Shown: in pieces, positions 9,477 through 30,487 of the stretch
How the letters are laid out: every line of letters starts with the position of its first letter
Numbering within the stretch: position 1 is the stretch's first letter
Assembly (NCBI GenBank): GCA_963823665.1
Contig: CAWGMQ010000004.1
Coordinates: 1,408,001 to 1,472,000, forward strand
Direction of reading: 5' to 3'
From: an uncultured Planctomycetota bacterium
GTDB lineage: Bacteria; Planctomycetota; Planctomycetia; Isosphaerales; Isosphaeraceae
DNA length: 64,000 bases
Notes under the pieces: generated by a model
What the model was told of the DNA's origin: nothing
The model's input: the letters and a program-made list of their open reading frames with translations, nothing else
The model's database searches: none
Made by a program: the position numbers and the translations under genes

Positions 9477-10901
9477 TTACGAGTACTCCATGTCATTCCG
9501 AAGCGCCCGCCGGGCTTCCTCGTGAATCGCCTGCATCCGCCCGCGGATCAGCTCGGTGACGAGCTTCGGATCCAGCCCGGCCATCTCGCTCGGCATGATC
9601 GGCGGCCCGTAGTGAATCCTCACCGGATGCGGCACCGGAACGGGCCGTGACCGCGGCCAGCTCTCGTGCAATCCTGCGACCGCGGCCGGAACCACCGGTA
9701 CTCCCACCCGCGCCGCCAGAACCGCGATTCCAGGCTTGAGCGGCCCGAGCTCGCCGTCAGGGCTGCGCGTTCCCTCCGGAAACAGCGTCACGATCCCGCC
9801 GGCCTTGAGCCGCTTGAGCGTCTCCTTCATGCCCGAGGCGCCAATTCCTTCGCGCTGGATGGGAAACCCGCCGACCGAGCGGATGAGCATTCCCAGAACC
9901 GGTAAGAACAACGTCGATCGCGCCACATAATTGAGCGGCCTGCGCAGCGGGATCCCCACAAAAAAGACATCCAGAAAGCTCACGTGATTGCAAACGAGAA
10001 GCACGCCCCCCGCAGCAGGAATATGACCCTGCCCGTTCGCTCGCCAGCGCATGACGCAGAGAGCCAGGCTCGAACAGACGCACTGAACGATCCGGTACCA
10101 GATCAAGCTCCCGCGCGAACGGTCGCGGCGTATCGGCTCCTCCCGCGGCCCTTGCTCTCGCGCCGGCGCGGCAGCCGACACGACCGGCGGGCGCTCGCCG
10201 ACCGCTTCCGGTGCATCGCCCCCTCGTTCTTGTCGCAGGCCCTCGTCTGGCCCTCTGCTCTGCACGTCGGCCGCCAGCCGTTCCACGACTTTTTCGATGC
10301 TCAACCCCGTCGAGTCCACGACAATCGCGTCGTCCGCGGGTTTCATCGGGGCGATCGCCCGGTCCGCATCGCGAGCGTCTCTCGCACGGATCTCTTCCAG
10401 CACGGCTTCGAAACCCAGTGCTTCCTGCCTCTGTGCATAATCAACCAGCCGGCGGCGAGCCCGCTCTTCCTCGCTGGCAGTCAAGAAGTACTTGCGAAAC
10501 GCGTCCGGAAAAACCAGCGTCCCCTGATCCCGACCTTCAGTCACCACGTTCTCCGTCGCGGCGAACTCCCGTTGCCACGCCGTCAGCCGCCTGCGCACGC
10601 TCGGACTATCGGCGATGAACCGTGACGACTCTGTGACCGCCGAGCCGCGAATCAGTTCCGTCACATCTTCGGAGCCCAGGACGACTTTTCCGGGCGGCAT
10701 CCGCACTTCGAGGTTCTCAACCAGCGAGCAAAGGTCCGATTCACTCGCGAGGTCGACATTCGCGCGAAGCGCCGCCAGCGTGACGGCACGGTACATCGCG
10801 CCGGTATCGAGGAAGCGCCAGCCCAGTCGATCGGCTAACTTCCGCGCAACGGTGCTTTTGCCGGCGCCGGCCGGTCCGTCGATCGTGACGACGCGGTACA
10901 T
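9477..10901 (-). CDS. cmk: Cytidylate kinase fused to a 1-acyl-sn-glycerol-3-phosphate acyltransferase (PlsC-like)
   Basis: N-terminal IDGPAGAGKST, DTGAMYR, EGRDQG; C-terminal NHVSFLD and FPEGTRS acyltransferase motifs; Pro/Ala/Glu linker between them. Confidence 0.9.
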   Translation of the reverse strand: MYRVVTIDGPAGAGKSTVARKLADRLGWRFLDTGAMYRAVTLAALRANVDLASESDLCSLVENLEVRMPPGKVVLGSEDVTELIRGSAVTESSRFIADSPSVRRRLTAWQREFAATENVVTEGRDQGTLVFPDAFRKYFLTASEEERARRRLVDYAQRQEALGFEAVLEEIRARDARDADRAIAPMKPADDAIVVDSTGLSIEKVVERLAADVQSRGPDEGLRQERGGDAPEAVGERPPVVSAAAPAREQGPREEPIRRDRSRGSLIWYRIVQCVCSSLALCVMRWRANGQGHIPAAGGVLLVCNHVSFLDVFFVGIPLRRPLNYVARSTLFLPVLGMLIRSVGGFPIQREGIGASGMKETLKRLKAGGIVTLFPEGTRSPDGELGPLKPGIAVLAARVGVPVVPAAVAGLHESWPRSRPVPVPHPVRIHYGPPIMPSEMAGLDPKLVTELIRGRMQAIHEEARRALRNDMEYS

Positions 10902-13438: not shown

Positions 13439-14775
13439 TCACCTCGATTTCGGCGGACGCGGCGTCATTCCCAGCAGCGTCTGCGGCGTCTGATACTGAA
13501 TCTCGCGCACATAGGCCATGGCCTGCTGGTGGTTCAGATGTCCCAGCTCGATCCGCTGGGCCAGCACGTTCGCCATCACCTTGCGCCGATCACAACCTTG
13601 GCATAAGACCACTCGACGCAATACGCGTCAGAGAAGAACCCGATCTGTTTGTTCGCCGGTACCATCTCGAGCCGCTCGTGCATCACCTGTGCAATTGTCG
13701 ACGGAAAAAAGTTATGCCACCAGTAACCGGCCAGGCTCAAGTTCGGCAGCTCGCGCACCAGCGTGCACATCGAATGGTTGGCGTGGCGAGAACCAAGGAA
13801 GCACTGAAATTTCAGCTTGGGATGCCGCCCGATCATCTCCGCGACCTGCCCGATGGTGCGCTGCGAAAGCCGGCTCGCAGTCTCGAACGGAAGCGGCTCG
13901 GCCCCGAAGCTGAACTGAAAGATCAGTTGCTCGCCGCGTGCTTCGAGCATGGTCAGGAAGAGCTCGTTCACATAAGACGCGTAACAGTCCCGCTCGGCCG
14001 GCCCCGCGTGACTGCGCCGCTTGATCGCAGCCGTCATCTCGGCATCGCTCACGATGCGATAGTCGATGTCGGTTGAGAGGTGGGTCGCCGTGGCGATGAT
14101 GCGATCGTACGGAATGCTTTCGACATAGTGCTTGACCGCCTGGTGCACGTCATCAAGGCACTTGATCGTGTGCTCGGTGGCCGGTCTCGGGCCTGCTCCG
14201 ATCGGAGCCGGGCTCTCGGGCGTTTTCCCCCAGCAACGTTCCAGCTCGTAGAGCGCTGTATCGAATTCGCCCCACTGGCAGCGCGTGAAGAATCCCCATT
14301 CGAGGGAGTATTGCAAGCGGCTGTCGTCCGATCCATTCCCGCGCCGGGCAAGCTCGGTGCCCGTGCGCTCGATACCTGCCCGGTCCAGTACCTGGGTTGC
14401 CCATGATCGATCGTCGGCCCGCTCGCGAATCATCGCATCGAGCTTCTTCCAGTTCGACTGGTCCAGCGGTGCCGACCATCCGTAGTGGTGGCGGAGAATG
14501 ATCCGCAAGCCCCAGTAAGAGGACGTGTTCTGGATGAACGGCAAGTAAGGCAGGGCCTCTTCGATCCGCGCTGTGGCTTCGGCGCGCGACGGCCAGCCGG
14601 GAAACTGGGTCAGCCGCGCTCCGTTCGGGCAGCCCGCGGCGTAGAGATCGCTGACGACCATGTGGTAGAGCAACAAGTCGTGCAGCCCTCGCGCAGCCAG
14701 CTTCCCGCCGACCAAGTGCGTGTGCACATCCAGAATCGGAATCTCAGCCAGCGACCGTTCCAGTTCGAGACTCAT
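13439..14775 (-). CDS. Amidohydrolase-superfamily protein, glucuronate isomerase (UxaC)-like; frameshift near 13590
   Basis: DVHTH metal motif, AGYWWHNF (compare UxaC GAAWWFND), GFFSDA; C-terminal RKVMANVLAQRIELG lies in the 13439-13621 frame. Confidence 0.7.
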
Positions 14776-15012: not shown

Positions 15013-15615
15013 ATGCCCGACGCAGTTGACCAAACACCACGCGACGTCTCGGCACTCTTCGATCGCTACCAAGAGCGATTGAGACGCACCGTGCGGCTCC
15101 GCCTGGACGCGCGCTTGGCTGGCATTGTTGATTCCTCGGGCGTTCTCAAACTGGCGCGTGAAGAAGCCGACCATCGCATGGCCGGGCTCGCTGAAAAATC
15201 CGCCGCCTCGTTCCTCTGGCTCCGGCAAATCGTCGGCGAAGTGCTGCTGAAAGTCCATAAAGAACGACTGGGCCCGGACTTTCGCGGCGATATCTCCCTC
15301 TACCGTGGTGCACTCCCCGAAGCCACCTCGACCTCGCTCGCCGCCCATCTTCTGGGCAAGACCGGCGGCGCCGACGACCTGGCCGCCGCCCGCGCCGAGC
15401 AAAAACTCCTGCTCCAGGAAACACTCAACGCCATGGACCCGATCGATCGTGAAGTTCTCACATTGCGCCACTGCGAACAGCTCTCCAACGACGAAGCCGC
15501 CGCCGTCCTGGAAATCTCGACCGCGCAGGCAAGCGAAGCTTACATCCGCGCCCTCAAGCGCGTGAGCCTGATCATGGCGTCATTGCCTGCTTTCAAGAGC
15601 AAGCGCCTGAACTGA
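15013..15615 (+). CDS. ECF RNA polymerase sigma factor (kinase-associated planctomycete type)
   Basis: LFDRYQERLRRTVRLRLD region 2; MDPIDREVLTLRHCEQLSNDEAA...YIRALKR region 4; 12 bp upstream of the kinase. Confidence 0.85.
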   Translation: MPDAVDQTPRDVSALFDRYQERLRRTVRLRLDARLAGIVDSSGVLKLAREEADHRMAGLAEKSAASFLWLRQIVGEVLLKVHKERLGPDFRGDISLYRGALPEATSTSLAAHLLGKTGGADDLAAARAEQKLLLQETLNAMDPIDREVLTLRHCEQLSNDEAAAVLEISTAQASEAYIRALKRVSLIMASLPAFKSKRLN

Positions 15616-15627
15616 AAAGGATCGACC

Positions 15628-18600
15628 ATGCCGGATGGTGGAACAGACCGCAATCCCGTCGAGCTCCTTTCGGAGGAATTCCTCGATCGCATCCGCCGCG
15701 GCGAGGCGGTCACACCCGAGGACTACGCCGAGCAGCACCCCGATCTGGCCGACGAGATCCTCGCGCTCTTTCCAGCTCTCTTGATGATGGAAGACCTGGG
15801 CGGCGAGACCGGCGACCTCACCGCCTCGTTCGGCTCATCCTCCCCGGCGCAATCGCCGGCGCAACCGCCGGTCATCTGGGAGAGTTCCGCTTGCTGCGCG
15901 AGGTCGGACGCGGCGGCATGGGCGTCGTGTACGAAGCCGAGCAAGAATCTCTGGGCCGCCGCGTCGCACTCAAGATCCTCCCCTCCGGTGCCCTCAGTGA
16001 CTCGAAGCAAGTCCGCCGTTTCGAGCGCGAGGCCCGCTCGGCCGCTCGGCTGCATCACACCAACATCGTCCCGGTCTTCGGCGTCGGCGAATGCGAAGGC
16101 ATTCATTTTTATGTCATGCAGTTCATCCAGGGCCAGGGTTTGAACGCCGTTCTGGATGAGCTCAAACGGCTGCGCGACGCTCGCGTTGCCACCCCCGCCC
16201 GTGCCTCGACCACCCGCCACGCCCAGGCGAGCCCAGCCGCGGCCGAGATCGCCAACTCGCTCGTCACCGGGCGATTCGCGGCCAGCACCGGCACGGCAAC
16301 CACGCCAACCGGCGAGACCCCCGGGCCCTCCTGGATCGGTCCACCCGTGCCCCCCAAAACAGCGGCCGGGCAGCTCGACGCATCCTCTCCAAGTGTCACG
16401 GCGACATCGAGCGTCTCAACCCTGTCGGAAACCGACCGCCGCTACTTCCAGGGCGTCACGAAGATCGGCCTCCAGGTCGCCGAAGCGCTCGCTTATGCCC
16501 ACGGTCAGGGAGTCCTGCATCGCGATATCAAGCCGTCGAATCTGCTGCTCGATCGAGACGGCAACGTTTGGGTTACCGACTTCGGTCTTGCCAAGGCCAC
16601 CGGGTCCGACGATCTGACGCATACCGGCGACGTGATTGGCACCGTGCGCTACATGGCCCCCGAGCGGTTCCGCGGCGAGAGCGACGCGCGATCTGATCTT
16701 TACGCACTCGGGCTCACGCTCTACGAGATGCTGGCCTTGCGCCCTGCACTTGACGAAGCCGACCACGCCAGCTTGATGCGCCAGGTGACGCAGGTCGAGC
16801 CGCCTCGACTCAAGCGATTGAACGCCCGCGTGCCACGCGACCTCGAGACAATCATTCATAAGGGCATCGCGCGAGAGCCCGCCCAGCGGTACCCCTCCTC
16901 GGCCGCGATGGCCGACGATCTGCGCCGGTTCCTGGAGGGACGCCCGATCCTGGCGCGCCAGGTTTCCCCAGCCGAGCGTGCCTATCGCTGGTGTCGCCGG
17001 AATCCGATCGTCGCCGCGCTGCTTGCGATCGTCTCGGGTCTGGTCGCCGCCGGGTTCGTCGCCGCGGTCGCCGCGGCGGTCTATTTTCGACAAACCGCAG
17101 CGAGCGAGAGCGCCGCGCGGCGCGATGCCGACCTCGCCCGCGCTCAAGCCGATCGAGCGCGCGAACAGGCCGTCGCCTCAAGCGCCGAGGCAGAAACCCG
17201 GCGGAAGGAGGCTGAAGCCAGCACGGCGGCCGCCATCCAGAAACAGCAGGAAGCCCTCGCCAGCTTCGCGCTGGCGCAATGCCGTCGACGATTCCTTCAC
17301 GAAAGTCAGTGAAACCGCACTCCTCAATGTTCCAGGCGTGCGGCCCCTTCGCCGTGACTTGCTCGAATCGGCGCTTGCATTCTACGAAGAGTTTCTCAAG
17401 CGCCGCGGCGACGACCCCAGCATCCTCGCCGATCTCGCCGCGACCCAGTTCCGCGTCGGCATGATCCTTGCCGAGCTCGGCGATGACGCCAAGGCACGCA
17501 CCACTCTTCGCAAAGCTGCTGCGCTTTACGATCAGGCCCTCGCCGCCAGGCCCGGCGATGTCGAGATGCTCGAACGCCAGGCAGAGGCCTGGCACCGGCT
17601 TGGTGACCTCGACTATCGAACCGATCCGGCAACAGCCGGCGCAGCCTACAAGAAGGCGGTCGCAATCCGCGAGCAGCTCGCCAAAGACCATCCCCAGGAC
17701 CCGCGGTTTCGGATGGCTCTCTCTCGATCTTTGAACGGCGTGGGGCTATGCGCCAGTCGAGGCCCGGCTGCACTTCCGGCCTACCGTCGCTCGCTCGAAC
17801 TGCGGTTGAAGCTCGCCGAGGAGATTCCCGGCGACGCCGATCTGCTCCACGGCTTGGGCGAGTCGTTCCACAATCTCGGCGCCCAGCTCATGACCTCCCC
17901 GGAACACGCGCTCGAGCTCTTCAAACGATCGATCGATTACTGTCAGGCGGCCCTCGACCGGCGGCCCCACGACCTCGAGTTCGCAGGGGATCTCGGAGCT
18001 TCGTATTCAAGCGCCGCGAATCTCTGCTGGTTCCAGGACCGCCGCGATGAAGCTTTGGCATTGTACGCCGATCAGGTTGCGCTTTATCGCAGGCTCGCGA
18101 GTGAAAACCCGGACGTCCCCCTTTACCGAATGCTTTTGGTACAAGGAATGTTCACGAATGCGCGATACTTGAGTCAGGCGGGCCAAACCGAGAACGCGAT
18201 GTCGCTGTTCCGCGAGCTCGCCGAATCAGTCGAATCCCAGCCCGAGTCGGCGGCAGCCACCTATCACTTTGCCATAGCGTCCCACATGCTCATCGCCGAA
18301 ATTCTCCTCGGCGACCACGCCGACTCGGATATCGATTTCTGGCCCGAACCCGCCCGTCATGAGGCAGACCTGGCCGTGGCCGACTTGAGAAAGTCGATCG
18401 ATCGCGGCTTTCACAACGCCGCCGTGCTGCGCCCTTCCCTTGAACAAAGCGCTCATGAAACGAGCCGATTTCCGCGCTCTTGTCGCCGAGATGGATGCCC
18501 AGCCAAACCGTCGGTGGCCCAGCAGCCCGCAGACACCCCGCACAAGCCACCCTTGAGTTCCCCACTAGACCACCCCGGCAGGCTCGAAGAGGATCAATTC

Positions 18601-21600
18601 CTCGGTGAGCTGACCATCGGCTTGCTCGAGAACAACCCCGGAAACCCCACAGCCGACGGAACCTCGCCACTGGAAGCGATGCTCGCGCGAGTGGAAAGCC
18701 GAATGAAGGCCGGCGCCAATCTGCCGGCCCTGGAAGCGGCCGCACGCGCGCTCCGTTCGAAGATCGGCGAACGGCTGTGGAAACTCGGCGAGCTCGCAAA
18801 GGCCGAGCGCATGTGGGATGAGAGTTTCAAACCAGCGGCTGCGCTGAAACGCGAAAAGCAGGTCCCCGAGCCCGTCGCTTCTCCGCAAGCCGCGTTCGGC
18901 GGGGCCGCAATCGTTGATCTCTACTTTGAGCGCGGTTCTCTGGGAGCAGGCCTACGCGTGGCAAGAGCGATTCAGGCCCTCGAGCCCGGCAGCCCGGGCG
19001 GCCCGCTGCTATTCGTCCGGGCTCCTCGCGCTTTACCGGGGCGACCTGGCCGCATTCAAGCAGATCGCCGCTGAAGCAATCTCGACCGCCGGGCAACCCA
19101 ATGATTCAATGGCGTTTGACGCGGTGCGCACCGCTGCGCTCGGTCCGCCGGGCACCGCTGACACCGACCAGGCCGCGGCCATCGTCAAGCGGCTATTGGC
19201 CATCCGGGCCCGCGGCTTGCCCGCCTGGTATCACGTCGTTCTCGGGCACGCCTTGCTTCGTTCCGGGGACGCAACGGGTGCCCTCACCGAGGTCGAGCCA
19301 TACAAAAACGGATTGAACGGCAAGGCCGTCATGCCTTTGATCCGCGCCGCGCCGGCCGATCCGACGTCGCCCGACGCTGGCTCGCCGCCCTCGACCGCGA
19401 CCTCGAAGACCAGGTTCACGAAGCTACGGATGCCTACGGCGCTCTCCGCGCGCCACGCTACTGGGGCGCCGATGTCCTTCGCGCCGATCTGCTTCGCCGG
19501 GAGGCCTACGCAGCGCTCGGTGAAAAGGCCCCCGAGCTACAGTCCCTTCGCCTCCTTCGCGCCGACTCGCTCCACCGCCTCGGCAAGATGAAGGAAGCCG
19601 AGATCGAATTCGATGCAGCCGTCGCCGGGGCGCCCGACCAGGTTGCTGCACTGCTCAAGCGAGCTCACACGCTCGAGAAGCTCGGCCTGCGCAATCGTGC
19701 CGACGACGATCTCGCACGTGCCTCGCAGGTCGACCAGAACGACCCGCGGCCCTGGGTCCTGCGCGGAAAGCTCCTCGCCGGCCGCGGCCTGGGAAACGCA
19801 GCCGACGAGGCGTATGCTCATGCCCTTGCGCTATCTGCAAATCGCTTGGATCCCTTTATCGAGGCCGGCTGGTGGATTGCCGGGCCCTTTCCGCCCGATA
19901 TGAGAATCTCCCAGGGGGTCGAGGACGATCCTGACCCCTCCCGGCCGATTTCCGGCGCCAACCTCGAGACCCTCGAATGGCGTTCGGTTTCCGCCAAGCG
20001 CAATCGCCTGGTGAACCTGGGCTTCATTCACGACCAGCCCAATTCATCCGTTTATGCGCTCACGCACATACCCTCGGATCGCGAGCGCACCATCATCATA
20101 TTCTTTGGCGGCGGCCGGACCGTTCGCATCTGGCTCAACGGGCGTATCGTGTTCGAGCCCGACTTGCCCAACGTCTATCATCAAGGCACCGAGTACTCCG
20201 TCCCGGTCGCGCTCAAGCCCGGCCGCAACACGCTGCTGGTGCGTGTGAGCGATCCCTCGAGCAGTCACTGGCTGCGATTGCGTACCGACGATTACGAGCT
20301 CGATCGCGCGTGGCTCTCCGCAGACTTCGGTCGCTTCGACGAAGCGGCTGATCTGTTCGACGCCGCCGGGCGTCGCGGGCAGCTTTACCAGTCGTTCCCC
20401 ATGGCTCGCAAGGTCCAGTTCCTGGCCGGGCTCGGCGACCGCAAGCGCTACCTCGAGTCGGCCGCCCTCTTGGCCGATTGGGACGGACCCTCGGCGATCG
20501 ACCCAGGTTCGACCGCGCTGGCGCTCGAGCTCATTCCCAACGATCTGATCTCCCCGGATCGCTTGATCGAACTGGCCCGGCAGGCGGCAGGCACAGCATC
20601 GGCGGGCAGGCTGCAGCACGACGTCGTCGGCCTGGCTCTCTACCGCGCGGGTCGCTATCGCGAGGCCCTCGATTACTTGCAAGCCCATCGAGGCAAGGAC
20701 GAGAAGCCCCGTCCCGTCGAAGGAATGGCCTTGTGGCACCTGGAAAACAGAGCGACGCGCGCGAAATCCTCGCTGAGCTCGATAAAGGTTTCGAGAAATG
20801 GGCCGGCCCGGGCGAAGGCGGCCACATAACCACATGGTGGAACTGGTCAGCGCTCGGCACGATGTACTTGTCCGTGCGCCGCGAAGCCCACGAGCTCATT
20901 GACGGCCACGCCCTCGACGATCAGCGGGTGCTCGCGAAAATCCGCGCTGGCATCGATAACTTACTCGACCAGCGCGACTCGCCCACCTGGGCTTTCGACG
21001 TGGTCGTCCGGCTCGATCCACAGAATGTCCCACTTCGCACCGCACGCTTCGGCCGGCTGCTCGAAATCGGCAGGGAGCCCGAAGCCGAGCCGTTCCTCGC
21101 CACAATGGTGAAGAATAAGGCGGACAAAATCGGCGCGTGGATCGAGCGCGGCATGTTACTGGCACGTGCCGGGCTGGCCGACCGTGCTGCGGCCGATTTT
21201 GCTGCTGCGCTTGACGTGGTCCCGCGCAATCCGATCATCTACGGCCCGCGTGCATCGATCTGTGCGACGCTGGCCACCGAGCCGGCGGCCTACGACCGGC
21301 TTCTCGCCCTCCGCGGGCACGATCCCGTTCTCTGGTACGTGTGCGCCTGTGAATCGGTCAGACGAAAAGACTGGAAGCCGGCCGTTGCCGACTTCATGCG
21401 TGGCGGCGAGCCGTCGGTGCCGAACGAGTTTGCATTCACATACGGGGCATCACTCCTTCTTGCAGGAGATCAGTCGGCCTTCGCGCGTTATGTCGCACGG
21501 CAAGCCGAGCTGCTGAACTCCTTGAACAATCCCGCAGCCCCTTATGTGCTGGCGAGAATCGCTGGGCTTTCGAAAGTGGGCGTGATGCCGTCAAAACAGC

Positions 21601-22013
21601 TTGTGGAATTGGCTGACTCCGCGGCCGCGAAGGCAAGCCCCGCGACCGCGTGGCATCGGCACGTCCAGGCCCTGGCTGCCTTCCGTGGTGGTGACCTGGC
21701 TCGAGCCGAGCAACTGGCTGACGAATCAAGTCGCCTTGCCTGGCTACACTCGCAGGGTCTCAATGACGTGCTGCTCGGTCTCATCAATCGGAGCCAAGGC
21801 AAAACGGCTCTCGCCCGCGCTCGACTCGACCATGCCTCGAGGACGCTCGGCCGCGCTCGCCCGGGCAGTGCGGCCAGCACAGCCGCGAACGGCAGAGTGA
21901 TCTTGCTCGACTGGCTGGAATTCCAGGTGCTGGGCCGCGAGCTCGAGCAAGCCCTCTTCGACCAAGCATTCCCGGCGGATCCGTTCACACGTTCTCTAAA
22001 GTCCAAAATCTAA
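15628..22013 (+). CDS. Giant membrane Ser/Thr protein kinase with TPR repeats and a beta-sandwich domain (~2100 aa), split by several frameshifts
   Basis: GRGGMGVVY, VALK, HRDIKPSN, DFGLA, GTVRYMAPE; TM segment after RRNP; TPR-like helices; WWIAGPF...WLNG...LKPGRNTLL domain; FPADPF end. Frame switches near 15843, 17277, 18440/18500, 18937, 19348 and 20743. Confidence 0.8.
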
Positions 22014-22651
22014 AATTGGCACAGCCATTGGCGCATCGCCGCCGGATCCTCTCCAAACATCAATGACCCCGGCACAATCCAATCCCCGCCCGCTTCGGCG
22101 ATCTGCGGCACGGTATTCCGCCGAATCCCTCCATCAAGTTGGATCTCGACCTCGGCGTCGTGCGCGTCAATCGCCGCCCTCGCCGCCCGGATCTTCTCGA
22201 AGATCTCGGGTTGCATGGTCGTCCCTTTCGTCCCCATCGGCGTCCCCACGATCGTGACCTGATCGATCAGATTCCAGTAGGGATCGAGCACGCTCACCGG
22301 CTCGGTCACCAGCAGCGAGATGGCCACGAGCTTTCCCAGGTCCTTCACCTTCTTGATCGCCACCGCCGGATCTTTGAGCGAGTCAAAACAAAATATCACG
22401 CCGTCGGCGCCAGCCTCGGCAAATGGCTCGACCCACGCCAAAGGCTCCGTGGTCATCAAATGCACCTCAAATGGTTTGGCCGTATGCTTGCGCAGCGCCT
22501 TCACCAAGTCAGGAAAAAACAACATGCTCGGCACGTAATGCCCGTCGGCAACGTCCAGATGGAACCGTTCCGTATACTCGTCAACCCGCCGGATCTCCGC
22601 GCCCAGGTTCGAAAGATCCGCCGACCACAATGATGCAGAACACTTCAACAT
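22010..22651 (-). CDS. rpe: Ribulose-phosphate 3-epimerase family protein
   Basis: SLWSAD, HLDVADGHYVP, EVHLM, LDGGI, VPGS motifs. Confidence 0.88.
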   Translation of the reverse strand: MLKCSASLWSADLSNLGAEIRRVDEYTERFHLDVADGHYVPSMLFFPDLVKALRKHTAKPFEVHLMTTEPLAWVEPFAEAGADGVIFCFDSLKDPAVAIKKVKDLGKLVAISLLVTEPVSVLDPYWNLIDQVTIVGTPMGTKGTTMQPEIFEKIRAARAAIDAHDAEVEIQLDGGIRRNTVPQIAEAGGDWIVPGSLMFGEDPAAMRQWLCQF

Positions 22652-22682
22652 AGAACACCCTCACTGGATGATGCATCGACCG

Positions 22683-23504
22683 TCAGGCGCGCTCGTCCAC
22701 CCGAAACCGCCTGAGCACAAAGCCATCGATGGCCTTCTTCACATCCGCCGCATGCCGGTCCACACTCACCGATTTCGGCGTGACCTCACAGAATTCGCAT
22801 CCTGGTATCAACCCGGCCAACGTCTCAGCCAGCTCCCACGGATGAATCGGATCGCGCCGGTTTCCCAGCACCAGCGTCGGGACCTTGATGGTCTTGTAGC
22901 GCGCCGGGTCAGGGCAGGGGGTATCGACAACCAGCCGTGACAGCCTGGCGGCGCACTCTTCGGCTCTCGGCTGTTCGAACTGGCCGATCAACGATTTGGC
23001 GCAATCCGGCGAATCACGCTCCATCGCAGCGTATTGCTCTGTGCGGTGAAATTGTTCGAGGCCCTCCTTCGCGCCCACCGTGCGCAGCAGCTCGGCAATC
23101 GTCGTGAACAGCCACACGTTCTCCGGCAGCGGGTGGTCAATCCACGCGGGTCGAGAAAGCACCAGTCCCAGCACGCGCTCCGGATGCCGCAGCGCCAGGT
23201 TCACTGAGGCCGCTGCACCCAGCGAAATTCCACCGATCACGGCGCGCTCAATCTGAACATGATCGAGGAGCGCCACGAGGTCATCAGCCAGGCACTCGAT
23301 CGTGAGCTTCGTCTCGTCACCGAGCGGGCGGGTCTCTCCGTGACCACGAAAATCCATTGAGATCAATCGCACGCCGGGGGCCGGCACGTATACTCCGACC
23401 GCCGCAATAAGGTCACCACCCAAGCCGTGCTGAAAAACAAAGGGTAAACCCACGCCGGCGTCGCGGTATTTGAAATTCAGGCCGTCACGATGGAGGACCG
23501 GCAT
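22683..23504 (-). CDS. Alpha/beta fold hydrolase
   Basis: QHGLGG oxyanion motif, DFRGHG, GISLG nucleophile elbow, DPIHP; start overlaps the upstream epimerase. Confidence 0.88.
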   Translation of the reverse strand: MPVLHRDGLNFKYRDAGVGLPFVFQHGLGGDLIAAVGVYVPAPGVRLISMDFRGHGETRPLGDETKLTIECLADDLVALLDHVQIERAVIGGISLGAAASVNLALRHPERVLGLVLSRPAWIDHPLPENVWLFTTIAELLRTVGAKEGLEQFHRTEQYAAMERDSPDCAKSLIGQFEQPRAEECAARLSRLVVDTPCPDPARYKTIKVPTLVLGNRRDPIHPWELAETLAGLIPGCEFCEVTPKSVSVDRHAADVKKAIDGFVLRRFRVDERA

Positions 23505-24486
23505 GTGGCGCACTCTCCTTCAGGATCGGTTTCAATATCTCCCGCAAGAATAGAACTCGACGCTCCACGTCCGCCTCCTCCAAGCCGTGAATCACGACGG
23601 CGCCGCGATAGCCAATTCTGTTCAGTCGGACGAAGTAAGGGTAATAAAAATGAAATGAAGGCTCGTTAAGCAGTGCCTTGCTCGGCAGCTTTGCCACCGT
23701 GTCGCTGAATTTGCTCATCTCCCCCTGCGAAGCAGCTTCGATAAGAGCACGAACCGACTTGCTGGCTCGAGCACGTTCCGCCGTCTCCTTCATCTCTGCA
23801 AGAGAACGATGATCGGCCTCATCAAGGTGCGGCTCTTTCGCATGAGCCAATACAATACTGGGGCCAAGCCAATCGAACACTTCGTCGAGGATCGCGGTGA
23901 ATAGGCCCATTTCGCCAGGCCGAAGCAAATTCGCCGGATCGATCACCACCTTCAACCACCGCGAATCAATCTCATCCAGCAGCCGGCGAGCCCTCATCAC
24001 CGAGCTGACGACATTGTTGATCTCCGGCTCAAAGGCCAGCGTCACTTCATGCCGGTCCGCAATCGCCACCGCCGCGCGCATCGTCTCGACCAGGCGTTCC
24101 CACGTACTCTTCCGCGCGTTCTCCGGATGCCACTTCCACATGTCATGTGGATCCATCGATCCGGTGCAAAGCGTGATGATTCGCGTGTCGAGCCAGCGGC
24201 AGGCTTGGGCGAGCACCTCAAGCCGGCGCAGGTTATTCGCCAGCCGTCCGCCGTTCGAATCAACCATGTTGAACGTGCCCGAGATCGCCGCCATTGTGAT
24301 CCCGCGCTCGTGCAGCGTCTGGGCGATCCACACGCACGAGCCTTCGTCGAGCTTATCCGGCAGCGTGGCCAGCCCCATGCACGACATGTTGAACTGAACT
24401 TGCGTCAATCCGTGAGAAGCGACCGCGTCCAGCGTCTGTTCGAGCGTCGGCCGCGGAAACGTCTTGGCGAAAATCCCTAGCTCCAT
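23485..24486 (-). CDS. Sugar phosphate isomerase/epimerase (xylose isomerase-like TIM barrel) with an atypical C-terminal insertion
   Basis: SGTFNM, TLCTGS, FEPE.NNV, IDPANL, LAHAK; TGATG coupling with the upstream gene. Confidence 0.85.
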   Translation of the reverse strand: MELGIFAKTFPRPTLEQTLDAVASHGLTQVQFNMSCMGLATLPDKLDEGSCVWIAQTLHERGITMAAISGTFNMVDSNGGRLANNLRRLEVLAQACRWLDTRIITLCTGSMDPHDMWKWHPENARKSTWERLVETMRAAVAIADRHEVTLAFEPEINNVVSSVMRARRLLDEIDSRWLKVVIDPANLLRPGEMGLFTAILDEVFDWLGPSIVLAHAKEPHLDEADHRSLAEMKETAERARASKSVRALIEAASQGEMSKFSDTVAKLPSKALLNEPSFHFYYPYFVRLNRIGYRGAVVIHGLEEADVERRVLFLREILKPILKESAPHAGPPS

Positions 24487-25563
24487 CAGACACCTCCGCT
24501 CAATCCGGCGAGCTCAACCCTCTCGCCGGTTTCCACCGAGCGCGCGATCGCCACCATCGCCTGCACCGCGGCCAGGCCGTCGTCCAGGCTGGCGCCCTCC
24601 TGCGGCGCACCGCGCAAAATCGGTCTCGGCAAAAGCTTCGATTTGCAGCTTGTAGGTATAGGCGTCTTCACCCAGCACGCGATGAAACTGTCGATCGCTC
24701 GCCCGGAAGCATTCGACATCGCTCGACTTGTGAAACCACGGCAGATACACGCGGCCCGAAACACTCCCATTCTCGCCGAAGACCTGAAAGCCTTCTTGAA
24801 AGTCGCCCTTGATCGGAATTTGCAAATCAAGATGCCCGAGCGATCCATCTTCAAAATCGACGTCGATGAACCAGCAGTAGCAATCGAACCGCTCGAGCAG
24901 GCGCGCGCGGACGGCCGCGATCGGCCCGCCCAGGCACCGCGCTGTATCGACGAGATGGCTGCCGTGCGTGAGGAGGTAATAGCGGCGGCGATCGGACTTC
25001 GGGTTCCCCTCCGGACGCAACGCCTTGGCGCTTGTGAACGGGATCGGCTGGAGATTATCGGTCATGGTGTAACGGTACGCCGAATCGTAGTACCAGGATT
25101 TCAGCGCGATGCGCTGGCCCATTTCCTCGGCGATGAACTTGCGGGCGAACGTGATTCCCGGGTCAAACCGCCGGTTGTTGCCCACCTGCACACTAACTCC
25201 GGCCGCGGCCGCCTGATCGCGCAGCTCGCGGCACGACTCGATCGTGGTGCCCAGCGGTTTCTCGACCAGTACGTGCTTGCCGGCCTGGATCGCCTTCTGC
25301 GCCGCGGGAACGTGAAACTGGTCGGCGATTGCGATGATCACGGCCTTGACCTTCGGGTCCGCGAGCATCGCGTCGTAGTTCGAATACGCGACCTTCGGCT
25401 GATGAACCTCGGCCATTCGCTCGCGCAGATCATCGGCGAGGTCGCAGATGGCGTAAAGCTCGGCGCTCTTGGCCTTGCGGCAGGCGTCGAAGTGAGCGAA
25501 CTGCGCAATGGGCCCGCATCCGAGCACGCCGATCGAGACGCGGTCATCATCCTTGACAATCAT
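24486..25563 (-). CDS. Gfo/Idh/MocA family oxidoreductase, frameshift near 24622
   Basis: GVLGCGPIAQ, VEKPL, GNNRRFDP, THGSHLVD; C-terminus ILRGAPQEGASLDDG...SGGV in the 24486 frame; ATGA overlap with the RLP stop. Confidence 0.88.
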
Positions 25564-26988
25564 GCGATCTTCCCCGGATACCGCTGCCGGAGCGCCTCGG
25601 AAAGCGCGGCCAGTTTCTTGCGCTGGGCGACGGCCGCCAGAGCGGCCAGATGCTCCTCCATTGCGATACCTTTCAGTTCGCCCGATTGATGAATTTCAAT
25701 CGCCTGAATCAGCGCTTCGAGTCCGATTCGCGGGTCGGCCTTGCCGTCTTTGCCTTTGATGGAGTTAATCGCCGAGCCGGCGAGGAAGAGCACGTTTTGC
25801 GCGATTCCCCGTTGATTCCAGATCTTCGAGGTTGAGGATGATATTGCCCTGGTCGAGCGCACCGGCGCGGGTGATCATGGTGGGGTTGATTCCCTTGATC
25901 GGCCGCGTGAGCGCCGCCTCCGAAGCATGCCACTCTGCTCCATAGGGGCGAATGAACGGCGAGCCGGGCCGTAGCGGGGCCGTCTGGCGGAAGTCGATGC
26001 CGTCGAGCCGGGCCAGCAAGTCAATCACCTCGCGCCAGATGCTTCGCGTCTTGACGCCGATGCCGGCGTTATGGCCGTAGATCGCCGGCGGATTCTTGAG
26101 CGTGCTGGTCGCTTCGCGGACCATCCTGACGGTCCCGCCCGCGTAGGTCTCACTGAACATCACACCGGAAGCGCCGGCTTCAACGACCGCCAGCACCAGC
26201 TCGACGATCTGTTCGGGGCCCGCGGTGACATGAGGCGAGTACACCAGCCCCAGCCCCCGGCGCGATTCGCGTACCCGCTCGATCGCCGCGATGGCGCGTT
26301 TGGTTCGCTCTTGGACCGGCGAATAATCGAGGTCGGGGTAGAGGTCTTCGTCTTCCTTGATGAACATCAAGAGGGGGCTGCCGGCGACCTCGCCCACCAG
26401 GCGTTCGACGTCCTCCGGCGTGATTCCGGCCGTTGGCTTTAGTATCGTGCCGAACGCGGGCTGGTCGAGGGCGAACCCGGTTTTCTTGCGGATGTTGATC
26501 GGCCCATAAGCCGGCCCGGGGAACCCGGCGAGCACGTCGTCGGGAATCTGGATCGAGATCAGCCGGGCGTCTTGATTCTCGTAGACGTCGAACATGACGG
26601 CGCCGGCGATCGTGTGCAGGATGTCGGTGGACGTGAGCCGCCCGTTCGGATGCCGCATCATCTTGAGCGGAAACGCTACGTGCAGCAGCCCGATCCTTCC
26701 AGACGCGTCAAACGCGTCGACGCCCGCCTGCTGAGCAGAGCATTGCGCCAGCAGCGACCCCGGCAGCGGGTTCTTGACGCCGCTGGTCGCATGGTAGCTG
26801 ATCTCCTCGATCGCGTGCTCGAGCGTTCCCGTCCGGAAATGGAAATAGTATGTGGCGACAAGATGATCCGGAACAGTTGGCGCAGGCCGTTCGCCCAGCC
26901 GGTCTGCGACCACCTTCCGCAAGACTTCCTCGCGAGCGTCGAAATCATCGCGTAGCAGATCGATCGTCGACGAATTCAAAAATGCCAT
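25560..26988 (-). CDS. RuBisCO-like protein (form IV RLP), divergent; frameshift near 25813
   Basis: FPGPAYG, GTILKP (K175 equivalent), MFIKEDE (K201/D203/E204), IYGHNAG (H294), ARLDGIDF; C-terminal LFLAGSAI in the 25560 frame. Confidence 0.85.
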
Positions 26989-27060: not shown

Positions 27061-27654
27061 TCACGCCTTCCCCGGGTGCTCGTCGGAGAAACTGACCCTG
27101 GCGTAGATGTCACGCAACGGTAGCGAGCAGTTGATTGAAACAATCTTGAGCGTGCCGTCGAGATCATCCAGCGCGGAAAATACCCAATCATCGCCCTGGC
27201 GGAGATAACGCCCGACCAGAACCTGGCTTTGGTCGATGAGAACATATTCTTTCAGAGATGGCAGCCGGCGGTAGTGCGCGAATTTCGCCCCACGGTCGTA
27301 CGACTCAGTTGTCGGCGAAAGCACCTCAACGATCACGGTGGGATTCAGAAGCGTATCCAATTCGTCATCCTGAAACTCGGGCTCGCCGCAGACAACGATG
27401 ACGTCCGGGTACGCGTACAGCCCGGTCGAACTCACGCAGACTCGCAGATCGCTGATGAAAGCTTCAGATGGACGATTCTCGAGCCGATCGCTGATCTTGT
27501 AGTAAAAATTGCCAGCGATTCGGTTATGCTCGCGACTCGCGCCCGACATCGCCGTGATGTATCCGTCAAGGTACTCGCTCTTGAACGCGGCTTTCCGCTC
27601 CGCGGCGAGGTACTGTTCCGGAGTAAAGCGCGTTCTCAGCGCGGCTGACGCCAT
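27061..27654 (-). CDS. Uma2 family (DUF820) endonuclease
   Basis: EYLDG.ITAMSGAS.EH, YPDV.VVCG, VEVLSPTTESYDRG.KF..YR.LPSLKEY. Confidence 0.92.
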   Translation of the reverse strand: MASAALRTRFTPEQYLAAERKAAFKSEYLDGYITAMSGASREHNRIAGNFYYKISDRLENRPSEAFISDLRVCVSSTGLYAYPDVIVVCGEPEFQDDELDTLLNPTVIVEVLSPTTESYDRGAKFAHYRRLPSLKEYVLIDQSQVLVGRYLRQGDDWVFSALDDLDGTLKIVSINCSLPLRDIYARVSFSDEHPGKA

Positions 27655-27727: not shown

Positions 27728-30487
27728 TTACCGCAGCTTTTTCTTTTCCCGAGTACCGTCAAAGTCCACAAACTGCGTCTCGATCTTCAAAAAAACACAC
27801 CCGTTGCTGGCCAAGTGCGTCGAAATCCGAACCCGCCCGTCGGCGTCGCTACGAGCGCTGTTCCCTCCCGTCCATCGGTACTCGCAGAGCTTCTGCACCC
27901 GCTCAACATCCGTCCGCGGATAAGCCGCCGGCGCAAGTAGCGTCTTGATCGCATCCTTCGCCAGGTCGCGCAAACCTGCGTCTTGATCCTGCCCCACCAG
28001 CTTCAGAATGGCGCCCGCCACCTCCTGGCGACCAGTCGCATCCAGCTTCGTCACCGCCTCGAGCGCCGCGCGCTTCTCGGCACGATCGCCCCCTTCAAGT
28101 GCGCGATGCAAAGACGCCACCCGCGCCGGGTCACTCGCGCCTGCTCCAGCCGGTCGATCACGCAGCGCCCGCGCCTCGGCAAACGGCGTGTTCTCATTCT
28201 TGCTGAAATGAAAGGCGAGCACGCGATAGAGCCGATTCGCCTCAACCCCGTCCAGCTCGAGCGTCACATCAAATGACGCCTCCGAGCGCGACTGAGTATC
28301 CTCCGGTTGATGTGTGTAAAGAACGGCGCGAATCACACCGCTATCATCCCGCGACGCAAAGCCGCCGATCCGATGCCCGCCGATCTGCTGCGGCTCCAGC
28401 ACCCAGTATCGATCTCCTAGATCCGAGAGCAGCCCCAGCACATGAAAGATCGGCATCGGCACAGTCACCGTCCGATCGCCGCGGCCGTCGCCATCGTCAT
28501 CGACGTGCACCACGCGCGAAACCGCGTTGATCCCCGCGAAATTCGCCGGCGGCGGCCATACCGTCAAAATCGTTTCACCGTAGGCGTAGCGTCGGTCCCT
28601 GGCCGCCTGCAATAGCTGACGATGTACCACGTCGAGGCACCAAGTGGGGAAAAAACCATTGCCCAGGTACGAATCGATTGCCGCCTCGTCCGGCGGCGGC
28701 AGCCAGTCCGGACAGGCCTCATGGGAGTCGACCCAGAGGTTCCTGTAGTATTCTGGATCAATCCCAAGCGCGATCTCCTTGGCTTTGATCAGCTTCGCCA
28801 CCATCATCTCCGACTTGTTGTACGCGTGGATCGAGATAAAATCACATGGACTTCCTTTACCTCCATGCTGCCGGCATAGCGTCTCGACGCGCCGCGACCG
28901 CCTACCTTCTAGCCGCTTGTCCGCAAACGCCGCATTGAGAGGCAGGGCGCCTGGCGCGGCCGCGTTCGGCGAGCAATGCGCAAGAAACTCCTTGAGCCTC
29001 AAGTTCACCCCAAAGATCGCGCCCAGCTCGAGCCCACCGATTGAAACCTTTCGCGAGTCGAACCCACGATCTTCATACGCCCGCAGCACGGCATCGGTCG
29101 AATAATCGTAAAACGTTTGCAGCTCGTTCCAGTCCGCCCGCCAGAACATCCGCCCGAGATCCGGCTCGTTGAAGATGCTCCATGGAAAGTCGAGCGCGTC
29201 GGCGCCATAGCGGGCAATGACGTGGCCGGCCAGCGCGCGGACGACTTCGTGCCACTGGGCGTAATCCTTCACGGTCGTCCAGCTTCGTCCATCGCGCGAA
29301 AGATCGCCGGCCGCATCCGCCAGGTTCGCGAGCACCCGCCGGCTGCGCCGATGCGCGAAGTCCCACTCCTTGTCGAGCCGGCCCCAGTAATAGCACGCCG
29401 TGCCGTACGGCTTGAACTTTCGCAGATAGCAACCTCCAGGCGCGAAGAGCCCGGGGGCGTCCGAGTCTTCCCACCGGGGCAGGGGCCCTTCGTAGGCGAT
29501 TTTCCACCCACCGGGCGGATTCGCGACCGATTCAACGGTTACTGTCCTCGCCGCGCTGTCCGCGGAAACCACCTTCGTCCGAGCGTCATGAACTCCGTCC
29601 GCGATCAGAACTTCGTCGCCAGGATGGTAATCGTCTCCCACAGGCCGCCCGTCGGGAATGTTGTATTTCTCGTGGCCAAGGAAGTCTTCAACGCGAAGCA
29701 CCAGTCTCTTGTCGCGCGGCTTGATTGCCGCGATGCGCCTGGTCTCGCGCTCGCGCACGATGTTCGGCAGATTGACCGGGAGGAATGCATTCGGCCGATA
29801 CTCTGTGCCGGTCATCCAGAAATCGCGCTGATAGCTCCAGGCCTTCGGGTGCTGCTTGCGAGCCTCGTCCATCAAATCGAAAGTCGGCTCATAGTTCGCG
29901 GCCTGCGTGCAAAAGACGACGTTGCAAATGCCCGAAAAGAACCTCCCATGCCATTGCACCGACTCGCATTGCAGATCAAGCTCGAACTTGACCGGGTGAA
30001 CCGCCGGTGCTGCCTCGGTGGTGAAGCTCCACTCGTGCGTGGCGGCGAGCGCCGGTTGGCCCGCGCTCGCCGTGACTATCACGCTGTAGGTCTTGTTTGC
30101 CACCAATGGTCCGTCAGGCTCGACGTAAACGGCCAGTGACTTCTTGCCCTGAAGGTCCTGCTTCGGGCGCAACCAACCGCGACAGCCCTCGGCAAAATGT
30201 CCGGCCGATCGAATCAATTCGACCCGAGCGCCGCCTTCCGGCTGAAGGCTGACCGAGACAGACGCAGGCTGAACGTCGGCCGGTTTGGCTCCCTGCGCAG
30301 CATCGAGCTCGAAGTAAATACTCGTTCGCAATGGCACGTTGCGGGCACCGTGCGCCGGGCGCGGGCTGCCGTGCGGGTCAGGCAGCCGCTCGATCAGCTT
30401 GACTTGCTGTGCGAAGCCAGGAATGGATGCAGCGGCCGCGAACGCAAGCCCGATCAGGCCGGCAAACGAACGACGTTGTGTAATCAT
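27728..30487 (-). CDS. Secreted glycoside hydrolase (clan GH-A, GH39-like) with N-terminal Ig-like domain and HEAT-like insertion
   Basis: Signal peptide; WSIFNEPD acid/base motif; DFISIHAY; WVDSHE putative nucleophile; WSFTT Ig-domain end. Confidence 0.65.
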   Translation of the reverse strand: MITQRRSFAGLIGLAFAAAASIPGFAQQVKLIERLPDPHGSPRPAHGARNVPLRTSIYFELDAAQGAKPADVQPASVSVSLQPEGGARVELIRSAGHFAEGCRGWLRPKQDLQGKKSLAVYVEPDGPLVANKTYSVIVTASAGQPALAATHEWSFTTEAAPAVHPVKFELDLQCESVQWHGRFFSGICNVVFCTQAANYEPTFDLMDEARKQHPKAWSYQRDFWMTGTEYRPNAFLPVNLPNIVRERETRRIAAIKPRDKRLVLRVEDFLGHEKYNIPDGRPVGDDYHPGDEVLIADGVHDARTKVVSADSAARTVTVESVANPPGGWKIAYEGPLPRWEDSDAPGLFAPGGCYLRKFKPYGTACYYWGRLDKEWDFAHRRSRRVLANLADAAGDLSRDGRSWTTVKDYAQWHEVVRALAGHVIARYGADALDFPWSIFNEPDLGRMFWRADWNELQTFYDYSTDAVLRAYEDRGFDSRKVSIGGLELGAIFGVNLRLKEFLAHCSPNAAAPGALPLNAAFADKRLEGRRSRRVETLCRQHGGKGSPCDFISIHAYNKSEMMVAKLIKAKEIALGIDPEYYRNLWVDSHEACPDWLPPPDEAAIDSYLGNGFFPTWCLDVVHRQLLQAARDRRYAYGETILTVWPPPANFAGINAVSRVVHVDDDGDGRGDRTVTVPMPIFHVLGLLSDLGDRYWVLEPQQIGGHRIGGFASRDDSGVIRAVLYTHQPEDTQSRSEASFDVTLELDGVEANRLYRVLAFHFSKNENTPFAEARALRDRPAGAGASDPARVASLHRALEGGDRAEKRAALEAVTKLDATGRQEVAGAILKLVGQDQDAGLRDLAKDAIKTLLAPAAYPRTDVERVQKLCEYRWTGGNSARSDADGRVRISTHLASNGCVFLKIETQFVDFDGTREKKKLR

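Follow-up and report, generated by a model that had tools for sequence, protein, structure and literature searches.

A deep clade of RuBisCO-like proteins with a conserved gene set in Planctomycetota and other phyla: a candidate undescribed route for sugar acids

A stretch of 64,000 nucleotides from an uncultured bacterium of the family Isosphaeraceae (Planctomycetota; assembly GCA_963823665.1, contig CAWGMQ010000004.1, positions 1,408,001 to 1,472,000), termed here the window, carries a gene for a divergent RuBisCO-like protein (RLP) at the head of a tightly packed operon. The evidence points to a real, conserved and apparently undescribed pathway whose centre is a deep RLP clade with a remodelled active-site pocket. 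The operon is best explained as catabolic, acting on a six-carbon sugar acid or on a polyol or cyclitol precursor, and as having been split by an insertion. No description of the clade or of the gene set was found in the literature, although most subscription papers lie outside the coverage of that search, which is not proof of absence.

The RLP clade and its active site

The RLP is the sole PF00016 gene found in the host genome. Read over both frames of its gene, it is 93% identical to an intact homologue, P0002, and its 120 best matches are 74–93% identical and mostly 475 amino acids long, with the nearest homologues in records titled Isosphaerales or Isosphaeraceae. In a 50%-identity library, five full-length members of the clade lie at 36–49%, and other RLPs follow from near 30% down. 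At E ≤ 0.001, 1676 of 8000 candidate proteins belong to the clade, and its cultured carriers include records titled Tundrisphaera lichenicola and Tautonia. A sample of 300 genomes of the phylum held no further member, only distant RLPs, which means that the clade is patchily distributed.

A model of P0002 built from 122 sequences has a predicted local distance difference test score (pLDDT) of 95 and adopts the RuBisCO fold; a first model, from an alignment of 23 sequences, was set aside at a pLDDT of 60. Compared to solved chains, the model yields Foldseek E-values of 1e-26 to 1e-22 and Z-scores of 34–39 over approximately 350–410 residues. It resembles RLPs and RuBisCOs about equally, with 15–24% identity among the matches listed. 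This fold, together with Lys211, Asp213 and Glu214 in 81 of 81 core sequences, places the protein in the RuBisCO superfamily as a form IV member. It does not belong to the carboxylating forms I–III, for which it scores 55–76 bits against NCBIfam cut-offs of 438–497. Overall, its NCBIfam scores are at most a tenth of the OiaX and MtnW cut-offs and less than a sixth of the RuBisCO ones. In a quick IQ-TREE phylogeny of 50 sequences, 26 clade members share a stem of 1.8 substitutions with a Shimodaira–Hasegawa-like approximate likelihood ratio test (SH-aLRT) value of 100. They fall apart from OiaX and from three unnamed RLPs encoded next to DUF1537 kinases, which group with OiaX; the tree contains no named OiaT, hamamelose or DeepYkr sequences, and P0222 joins it by a long branch. 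The preliminary description of this DNA had called the RLP divergent and its gene set unlike those of characterised RLPs; with respect to OiaX and MtnW, both the scores and the long-stemmed separate clade bear out the divergence.

The active site was mapped by alignment to RuBisCO. In RuBisCO numbering, the equivalents of Lys175, Lys201, Asp203, Glu204, His294, Gly380 and Gly404 are invariant in all 81 core sequences. In the same 81, Lys177 is replaced by Thr, Asn123 by Ala, Arg295 by Asn, His327 by Gln and Ser379 by Ala; the Glu60 equivalent is His in 75, and loop 6 lacks a Lys at the Lys334 position. Six residues, Arg334, Arg374, Asn307, Gln335, His125 and His253, do not vary in the core or in five deeper members. 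By this alignment, the RLP keeps the carbamate/Mg and P1-phosphate sites, lacks the distal phosphate site, and has gained two new invariant arginines, Arg334 and Arg374. Given this pattern, the enzyme could enolise a 2-ketose 1-phosphate and would have no RuBisCO-like binding of a distal phosphate. Atlas searches returned solely RuBisCO and glucuronate-isomerase-like clusters.

Several characterised RLP systems invite comparison. In the apiose/apionate systems, too, the RLP (OiaX or OiaT) is encoded in a sugar-acid operon, together with a kinase and a Gfo dehydrogenase; OiaT is a transcarboxylase/hydrolase acting on 3-oxo-isoapionate 4-phosphate. However, the OiaX-type proteins compared form a separate clade at 24–30% identity, the RLP reaches 56–58.5 of the 700 bits set for OiaX (3-oxo-isoapionate-4-phosphate decarboxylase; NF042437), and the apiose Gfo is 22% identical to that of the operon. 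Their partners, a DUF1537 kinase, an oxidoisomerase and a lactonase, gave no tblastn match in the window or in the 80 loci described below, in keeping with the earlier statement that the gene set is unlike the apiose type, and PF07005 had no match over its cut-off in the host genome (92% complete). MtnW, the enolase of the YkrW clade, shares the top fold scores with other RLPs (Z-scores of 37–39, root mean square deviation of 2.4–2.8). It differs in sequence (19–22% identity) and has a catalytic Lys at the Asn123 position, where the RLP has Ala. The RLP scores about 18–47 bits against MtnW cut-offs of 409–514 (17.9 of 513.6 for TIGR03332 and 39.5 of 409 for NF007095), and there is no mtn gene among the scanned window open reading frames (ORFs; 42 references, 8 + 34, selected from those of the window).

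The DeepYkr RLPs of Rhodospirillum rubrum and Rhodopseudomonas palustris are also form IV proteins with an intact metal site, and they act on a 2-ketose 1-phosphate without a distal phosphate, the type of substrate proposed here; as described in PMC5893883, the enzyme is a 5-methylthioribulose-1-P 1,3-isomerase and thus a precedent for 1,3-isomerisation. Its partners MtnP, MtnA and the methylsulfurylase cupin were not seen among the scanned window ORFs. Solved R. palustris RLPs are 19–21% identical to the RLP, including 3QFW (RLP1; 19%). The hamamelose RLP oxygenase of Ochrobactrum anthropi, compared here by description, is the last step of a sugar pathway according to PMC8914248. RLP matches occur in 246 plasmid records, mostly rhizobial and all distant (23–34% among the 40 matches listed). 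In bioRxiv 10.1101/2025.11.05.686826, RLPs are treated as a collapsed outgroup.

Two further observations concern other RLPs. A second, unrelated clade, 26–29% identical to the one under study, occurs in other Planctomycetota (L003 and L176–L179); in L179, judged from ORF starts only, its gene adjoins purine-synthesis-like and electron-transport-like genes. In L189 and L191, a gene of the PRK/uridine-kinase family directly follows the RLP (with a Pfam match in L189 only), an arrangement that could mimic a Calvin-cycle pair.

The operon and its conserved partners

Five co-oriented genes had been reported at this locus, and a Pfam scan agrees with their coordinates and families (Table 1). Their tight packing was confirmed from the sequence: the first three junctions are overlaps of 4 bp (ATGA), 1 bp (TGATG) and 20 bp, and rpe follows after a gap of 31 bp. 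As also stated at the outset, PRK, rbcS, methionine-salvage and sugar kinase genes are absent from the 42 ORFs scanned against Pfam. A promoter and terminator scan gave nothing above shuffled sequences.

Table 1. Coordinates of the operon genes and of the interrupting insert in the window.
Gene	Position	Strand	Remarks
RLP, uncharacterised clade (475 aa when intact)	25560..26988	-	PF00016; extra base near 25803-25807
Gfo/Idh/MocA NAD-dependent dehydrogenase	24486..25563	-	PF01408; extra base near 24621
Xylose-isomerase-like TIM barrel	23485..24486	-	PF01261
Alpha/beta hydrolase	22683..23504	-	PF00561
Rpe-like (ribulose-phosphate 3-epimerase family) protein	22010..22651	-	PF00834
Uronate-isomerase-like amidohydrolase-fold gene	13439..14775	-	77% to L124 protein; nearest PDB 4I6V, BH0493
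Extracytoplasmic function (ECF) sigma factor and Ser/Thr kinase-TPR gene(s), several frames	15013..22013	+	Sigma70_r4_2, Pkinase, TPR

The reading frames of the RLP and the Gfo dehydrogenase each contain an extra base. The frame of the RLP is broken in the sequence as first reported, but at about 25803–25807 rather than at 25813, and the one in the dehydrogenase had been overlooked. In short-read run X1, which may be the source sample, a 262-base contig has one base fewer at 25803 and no other differing letter, and a 194-base contig has one base fewer at 24621; the X1 contigs (depth 3.7 and 4.8) are identical to the window or one letter off elsewhere. Two X3 contigs are likewise one base short at 24621-2, and all of these contigs are of low depth (2.4–4.8). 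Because the contigs lack the extra bases and RLP homologues are intact at 475 amino acids, both bases are probably assembly errors and both genes probably intact. A pseudogene reading is rejected on the evidence of the same contigs.

The uronate-isomerase-like gene lies outside the region covered by the preliminary description and was missed there. It has a probable one-base deletion near 13587, seen as an indel against L073. In L074–L076 and L078 this gene comes directly after rpe, at a distance of up to about 0.8 kb from its start, while in the window a sigma/kinase pair on the opposite strand separates the two; the pair is absent from the equivalent place in L074–L078. The ECF sigma factor and kinase-TPR insert is thus not part of the pathway and interrupts the operon. 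At this site, L073 carries a different insert, about 2 kb long. The isomerase-like protein keeps the HxH, Asp, WW and one Arg of its nearest solved relatives, 4I6V and the B. halodurans uronate isomerase BH0493, and has Tyr at the second Arg position; in BH0493 these residues include the metal site and a carboxylate-binding Arg. It scores 33 of 387 bits with the curated UxaC family of NCBIfam and has no Pfam match. Since the host carries separate Pfam-grade UxaC and UxuA genes, and the protein is 25% identical to UxaC, it is a paralogue.

The four adjacent partners are similarly distant from curated families. The best NCBIfam match of the Gfo protein is inositol 2-dehydrogenase (101 bits against a cut-off of 355) and that of the hydrolase is PcaD (83 against 256). 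The Rpe-like protein keeps the metal-binding and catalytic His, Asp, His and Asp and scores 149.5 against 212.6 for TIGR01163 and 124 against 271 for AlsE. In 30 homologues of the TIM barrel, Glu153, Asp183 and His215 are conserved, and so is His300 at the position presumed to hold the second catalytic Glu of xylose-isomerase-like barrels. Because His replaces this Glu, the name “epimerase” used at first is unproven. In 28 homologues of the hydrolase, Ser94, Asp218, His221 and His251 are invariant and Lys244 takes the usual His position; with catalytic residues altered in this way, the suggested “lactonase” activity is not established either. An amidohydrolase occupies the hydrolase slot in L152. 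PDB searches found no close relative of the Gfo protein, the hydrolase or the TIM barrel (for the last, none at E ≤ 0.001). The hexuronate (UxaC-UxuB-UxuA-KdgK) and myo-inositol (IolG-E-D-B-C-J) routes use the same enzyme families in a similar logical order. However, the operon members all fall under the curated cut-offs, and those routes have no RLP or Rpe-like enzyme.

Conservation of the neighbourhood was examined in the best 80 of 127 confirmed genome loci, with partners counted at 35% identity or more. The counts are 37 for the Gfo dehydrogenase, 34 for the TIM barrel, 32 for the hydrolase and 29 for Rpe. All four are found together in 25 loci, which belong to records titled Planctomycetota, Verrucomicrobiota, Chloroflexota and Hydrogenedentota and one that is unclassified. 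The neighbourhood is therefore conserved. Clustering revealed further recurrent neighbours: the uronate-isomerase-like gene (27 of 80), a PfkB ketose kinase (15), an MtlD-like dehydrogenase (9), a small cupin of the mannose-6-phosphate-isomerase C-terminal type (9), a UroD-fold gene (8) and a class I aldolase (4). In 20 metagenome loci found with a 49%-identical member as query, the kinase occurs in 7, the UroD-fold gene in 6, the MtlD-like gene in 5, the isomerase in 4 and a class II aldolase in 2, so that deeper clade members are again accompanied by isomerase, kinase and MtlD-like genes. No locus has both a Gfo and an MtlD-like gene (none in the 80 loci, with 37 and 9 occurrences respectively, and none in the 20, with 2 and 5). 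The RLP is last in L130 and L227, a second gene order, and it stands with Rpe only in L092. The isomerase-like gene and the PfkB kinase, a usual seventh member, are linked to the RLP no less closely than the four neighbouring genes are. Thus the five genes and their packing are real, but as a unit they are a fragment of a seven-gene set. The full set also appears in L102, a record titled Akkermansia muciniphila; its RLP is very like that of the Pedosphaera record L105, and the label may be wrong.

The nearest solved relative of the partner kinase is the E. coli sulfofructose kinase (E-value of 1.9e-45, compared to 5e-27 for ribokinase), with ketohexokinases likewise among the matches. In that enzyme, YihV, PMC8006165 describes a sulfonate triad of Lys27, Arg138 and Asn109, of which Lys27 contacts the ketose C1 hydroxyl. 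All 14 kinase homologues keep Lys27 and are mixed at the other two positions, which separates them from YihV. The MtlD-like protein reaches 285 bits against mannitol-1-phosphate dehydrogenase but no more than 23 against uronate reductases; neither it nor the class I aldolase was found in the host genome (one query each). In L229 (9065-12001), the kinase and a DeoR gene lie beside a B12-binding protein and a RACo activator, followed by a UroD-fold gene, a context that gives a weak hint of an O-methylated substrate. Genes for pyruvate-dehydrogenase-like E1 alpha and beta subunits adjoin deeper clade members or the kinase in L182, L184, L192, L196 and L229, in some of these loci with E2 and a SIS-domain gene.

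At the genome level, cross-tabulated by hand, the clade RLP occurs in 50 of 121 genomes of the family (54 matches less 4 distant RLPs). All 21 genomes with the isomerase-like gene have the RLP, and the Gfo gene is found in 38, of which 24 have the RLP and 14 do not. The cluster occupies a single chromosomal slot before polX, where lineages retain different subsets; the record titled Tundrisphaera lichenicola lacks both a close isomerase and a close MtlD-like gene. Among 251 genomes from the order of G421 (an Anaerolineales record included by design), the RLP is found in 6, the isomerase in 7, the kinase in 6 and Gfo in 6, all within the same 7 genomes and often on different contigs. Six of the 7 isomerase genomes and five of the 6 Gfo genomes have the RLP. 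In this order Gfo-TIM-hydrolase-Rpe remains a block, and the sole genome without Gfo has the cupin and the MtlD-like gene.

The block also occurs elsewhere. On rhizobial plasmids, 122 records contain Gfo orthologues of 58–61% identity. In four such regions, Gfo, TIM barrel and hydrolase lie beside a ROK kinase and a sugar ATP-binding cassette transporter, with Rpe in three; three of the four also have a class I aldolase and a PfkB kinase of the partner-kinase subfamily (36–41%). Because it occurs there without the RLP, the block is best seen as a feeder module able to lead into a different terminal part. Clusters such as L159/L219 (e.g., NC_008378.1, 16.9-33.7 kb) are tractable for finding the substrate. 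Literature on rhizobial locus tags gave no substrate: SMc03810, assigned to the S. meliloti cluster, is listed in one transcriptome table and nowhere else, and the sole mention of pRL120027 and pRL120033 is as annotated genes that are non-essential.

Two other features of the window were noted. A Uma2 gene (27061-27654) and a gene for a GH39-like secreted protein (27728-30487), both on the minus strand, lie directly upstream of the RLP, an arrangement shared only with L073 among the 80 loci. At 9477-10901 (minus strand), a cytidylate kinase and an acyltransferase read as a single ORF of 474 amino acids, which may reflect a fusion or an indel; they are separate ORFs in the relatives listed.

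Proposed pathway and alternatives

The original proposal of an undescribed sugar or sugar-acid pathway holds in part, in that the RLP lies outside OiaX and MtnW and its neighbourhood is conserved, although the gene set was incomplete and two of the activities remain unestablished. It is likely that the genes serve one sugar or sugar-acid pathway, and somewhat less firmly, a 2-ketose 1-phosphate is the probable substrate of the RLP. From gene identities, packing, co-distribution and the active-site pattern, we infer the following reactions. The Gfo dehydrogenase would oxidise the entry compound, the TIM barrel would rearrange it and the hydrolase would open a ring to give a uronate-type acid; the MtlD-like dehydrogenase and the cupin may be an alternative feeder. 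The uronate-isomerase-like enzyme would then form a 2-keto acid, which the PfkB kinase would phosphorylate at C1. The resulting 2-keto-hexuronate 1-phosphate would be bound at the intact P1 site of the RLP and enolised at the carbamylated Lys/Mg centre. By analogy with the 1,3-shift of DeepYkr RLPs, the carbonyl may be moved by two carbons, yielding a beta-keto acid that would lose CO2 to give a pentulose 5-phosphate. Finally, the Rpe-like enzyme would produce D-xylulose 5-phosphate, which enters the pentose phosphate pathway. From the uronate onward, this route would be redox-neutral. Its exact chemistry, the carbonyl shift in 2-keto-hexuronate 1-phosphate that ends in CO2 and pentulose 5-phosphate, is offered tentatively.

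A number of observations weigh against this scheme, chief among them the missing kinase, the frequency with which the RLP stands alone, and the MtlD-like and ROK partners, which have a neutral-sugar character. In the host genome (92% complete) no partner kinase was found, the best PfkB being 29% identical, and this kinase occurs in just 11 of the 121 family genomes, 9 of them with the RLP. The RLP is present without both Gfo and isomerase in 26 of its 50 family genomes, several of them near-complete, and 22 of the 80 loci have none of ten partner families (some being short contigs). The MtlD-like scores point to neutral sugar phosphates. Aldolases adjoin the RLP in 4 of 80 and 2 of 20 loci, and rhizobia combine the block with a ROK kinase and a class I aldolase and have no RLP in the four regions read; nor was a close isomerase present on any plasmid searched (rhizobial chromosomes were outside that search). 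That Arg334 and Arg374 face the substrate is a conjecture, and because kin are not independent, the co-occurrence counts overstate the association.

Part of this would be explained if the RLP were an isomerase of neutral ketose 1-phosphates (pentulose 1-P to 5-P, or hexulose 1-P to 3-hexulose 6-P), without decarboxylation and able to act alone in salvage or repair. The lone RLPs and the RLP with Rpe in L092 would then be accounted for, and the lost distal phosphate site, the MtlD-like partner and the rhizobial ROK/Rpe context would fit. This alternative is nevertheless unlikely, since it leaves the strict link between isomerase and RLP (21/21 and 6/7) and the two new invariant arginines unexplained. 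An equally unlikely alternative is that the RLP cleaves the carbon chain, by a hydrolytic, retro-aldol or oxygenase reaction as in OiaT or the hamamelose RLP, and replaces the aldolase of an inositol-like route. Gfo, TIM barrel, hydrolase, isomerase and PfkB do parallel IolG, IolE, IolD, IolB and IolC, and in the rhizobial clusters, where no RLP is present, a class I aldolase occurs along with a PfkB of the partner-kinase subfamily. Decarboxylation and oxygenation are also listed for RLPs in PMC10176493. However, aldolase and RLP do occur together in 6 of 100 loci, the Rpe-like gene would have no role, and the Lys334, Glu60 and Asn123 equivalents are not kept.

It is rather improbable that the entry compound is O-methylated (e.g., 4-O-methylglucuronate or a methyl-inositol), its methyl group being removed by corrinoid methyltransferases in anaerobes or eliminated as methanol from C4 of the RLP enediolate. 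A UroD-fold gene accompanies the RLP in 8 of the 80 loci and in 6 of the 20, counts that have no control for background frequency at unrelated sugar loci in these hosts; this would agree with such a substrate, as would the surroundings of the kinase in L229 and the status of the isomerase as a paralogue of the host UxaC. However, no such genes are found among the scanned window ORFs or the recurrent neighbours of close relatives. It is more doubtful still that the RLP and the four-gene block are merely co-located and belong to separate routes. The block does occur without the RLP in rhizobia, Gfo lacks it in 14 of 38 family genomes, and both halves have been lost independently at one chromosomal slot. 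However, even where they are unlinked, the two share a small number of genomes (the RLP is present in 5 of the 6 Gfo genomes among the 251), and they are adjacent in both gene orders across phyla. The nearest solved kinase might suggest a sulfosugar route in which sulfofructose 1-phosphate is the substrate of the RLP. This reading is largely rejected and very improbable, as only the Lys of the sulfonate triad is kept.

Significance of the clade

A measured reaction is known for only a handful of RLPs, according to PMC10176493. These proteins are a window on the roles of the RuBisCO fold before and besides CO2 fixation. The present clade is large and has a rebuilt pocket, and its partner enzymes would make the substrate of the RLP, so that its function is directly testable. 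It is possible, if doubtful, that the RLP adds a class of reaction new to the RuBisCO fold, acting as an isomerase/decarboxylase of 2-keto-hexuronate 1-phosphate that would convert a uronate (possibly O-methylated, as 4-O-methylglucuronate is, or derived from the opening of a cyclitol ring) directly to pentulose 5-phosphate and CO2 without redox steps. If true, a pathway of seven enzymes would be centred on it, present in Planctomycetota, Chloroflexota, Verrucomicrobiota, Hydrogenedentota and further phyla that are mostly uncultured. Such a pathway would add a new carbon route in soil and sediment bacteria, and would give a handle on the orphan four-gene cassette of cultured rhizobia, as found on pRL12 of R. 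johnstonii 3841.

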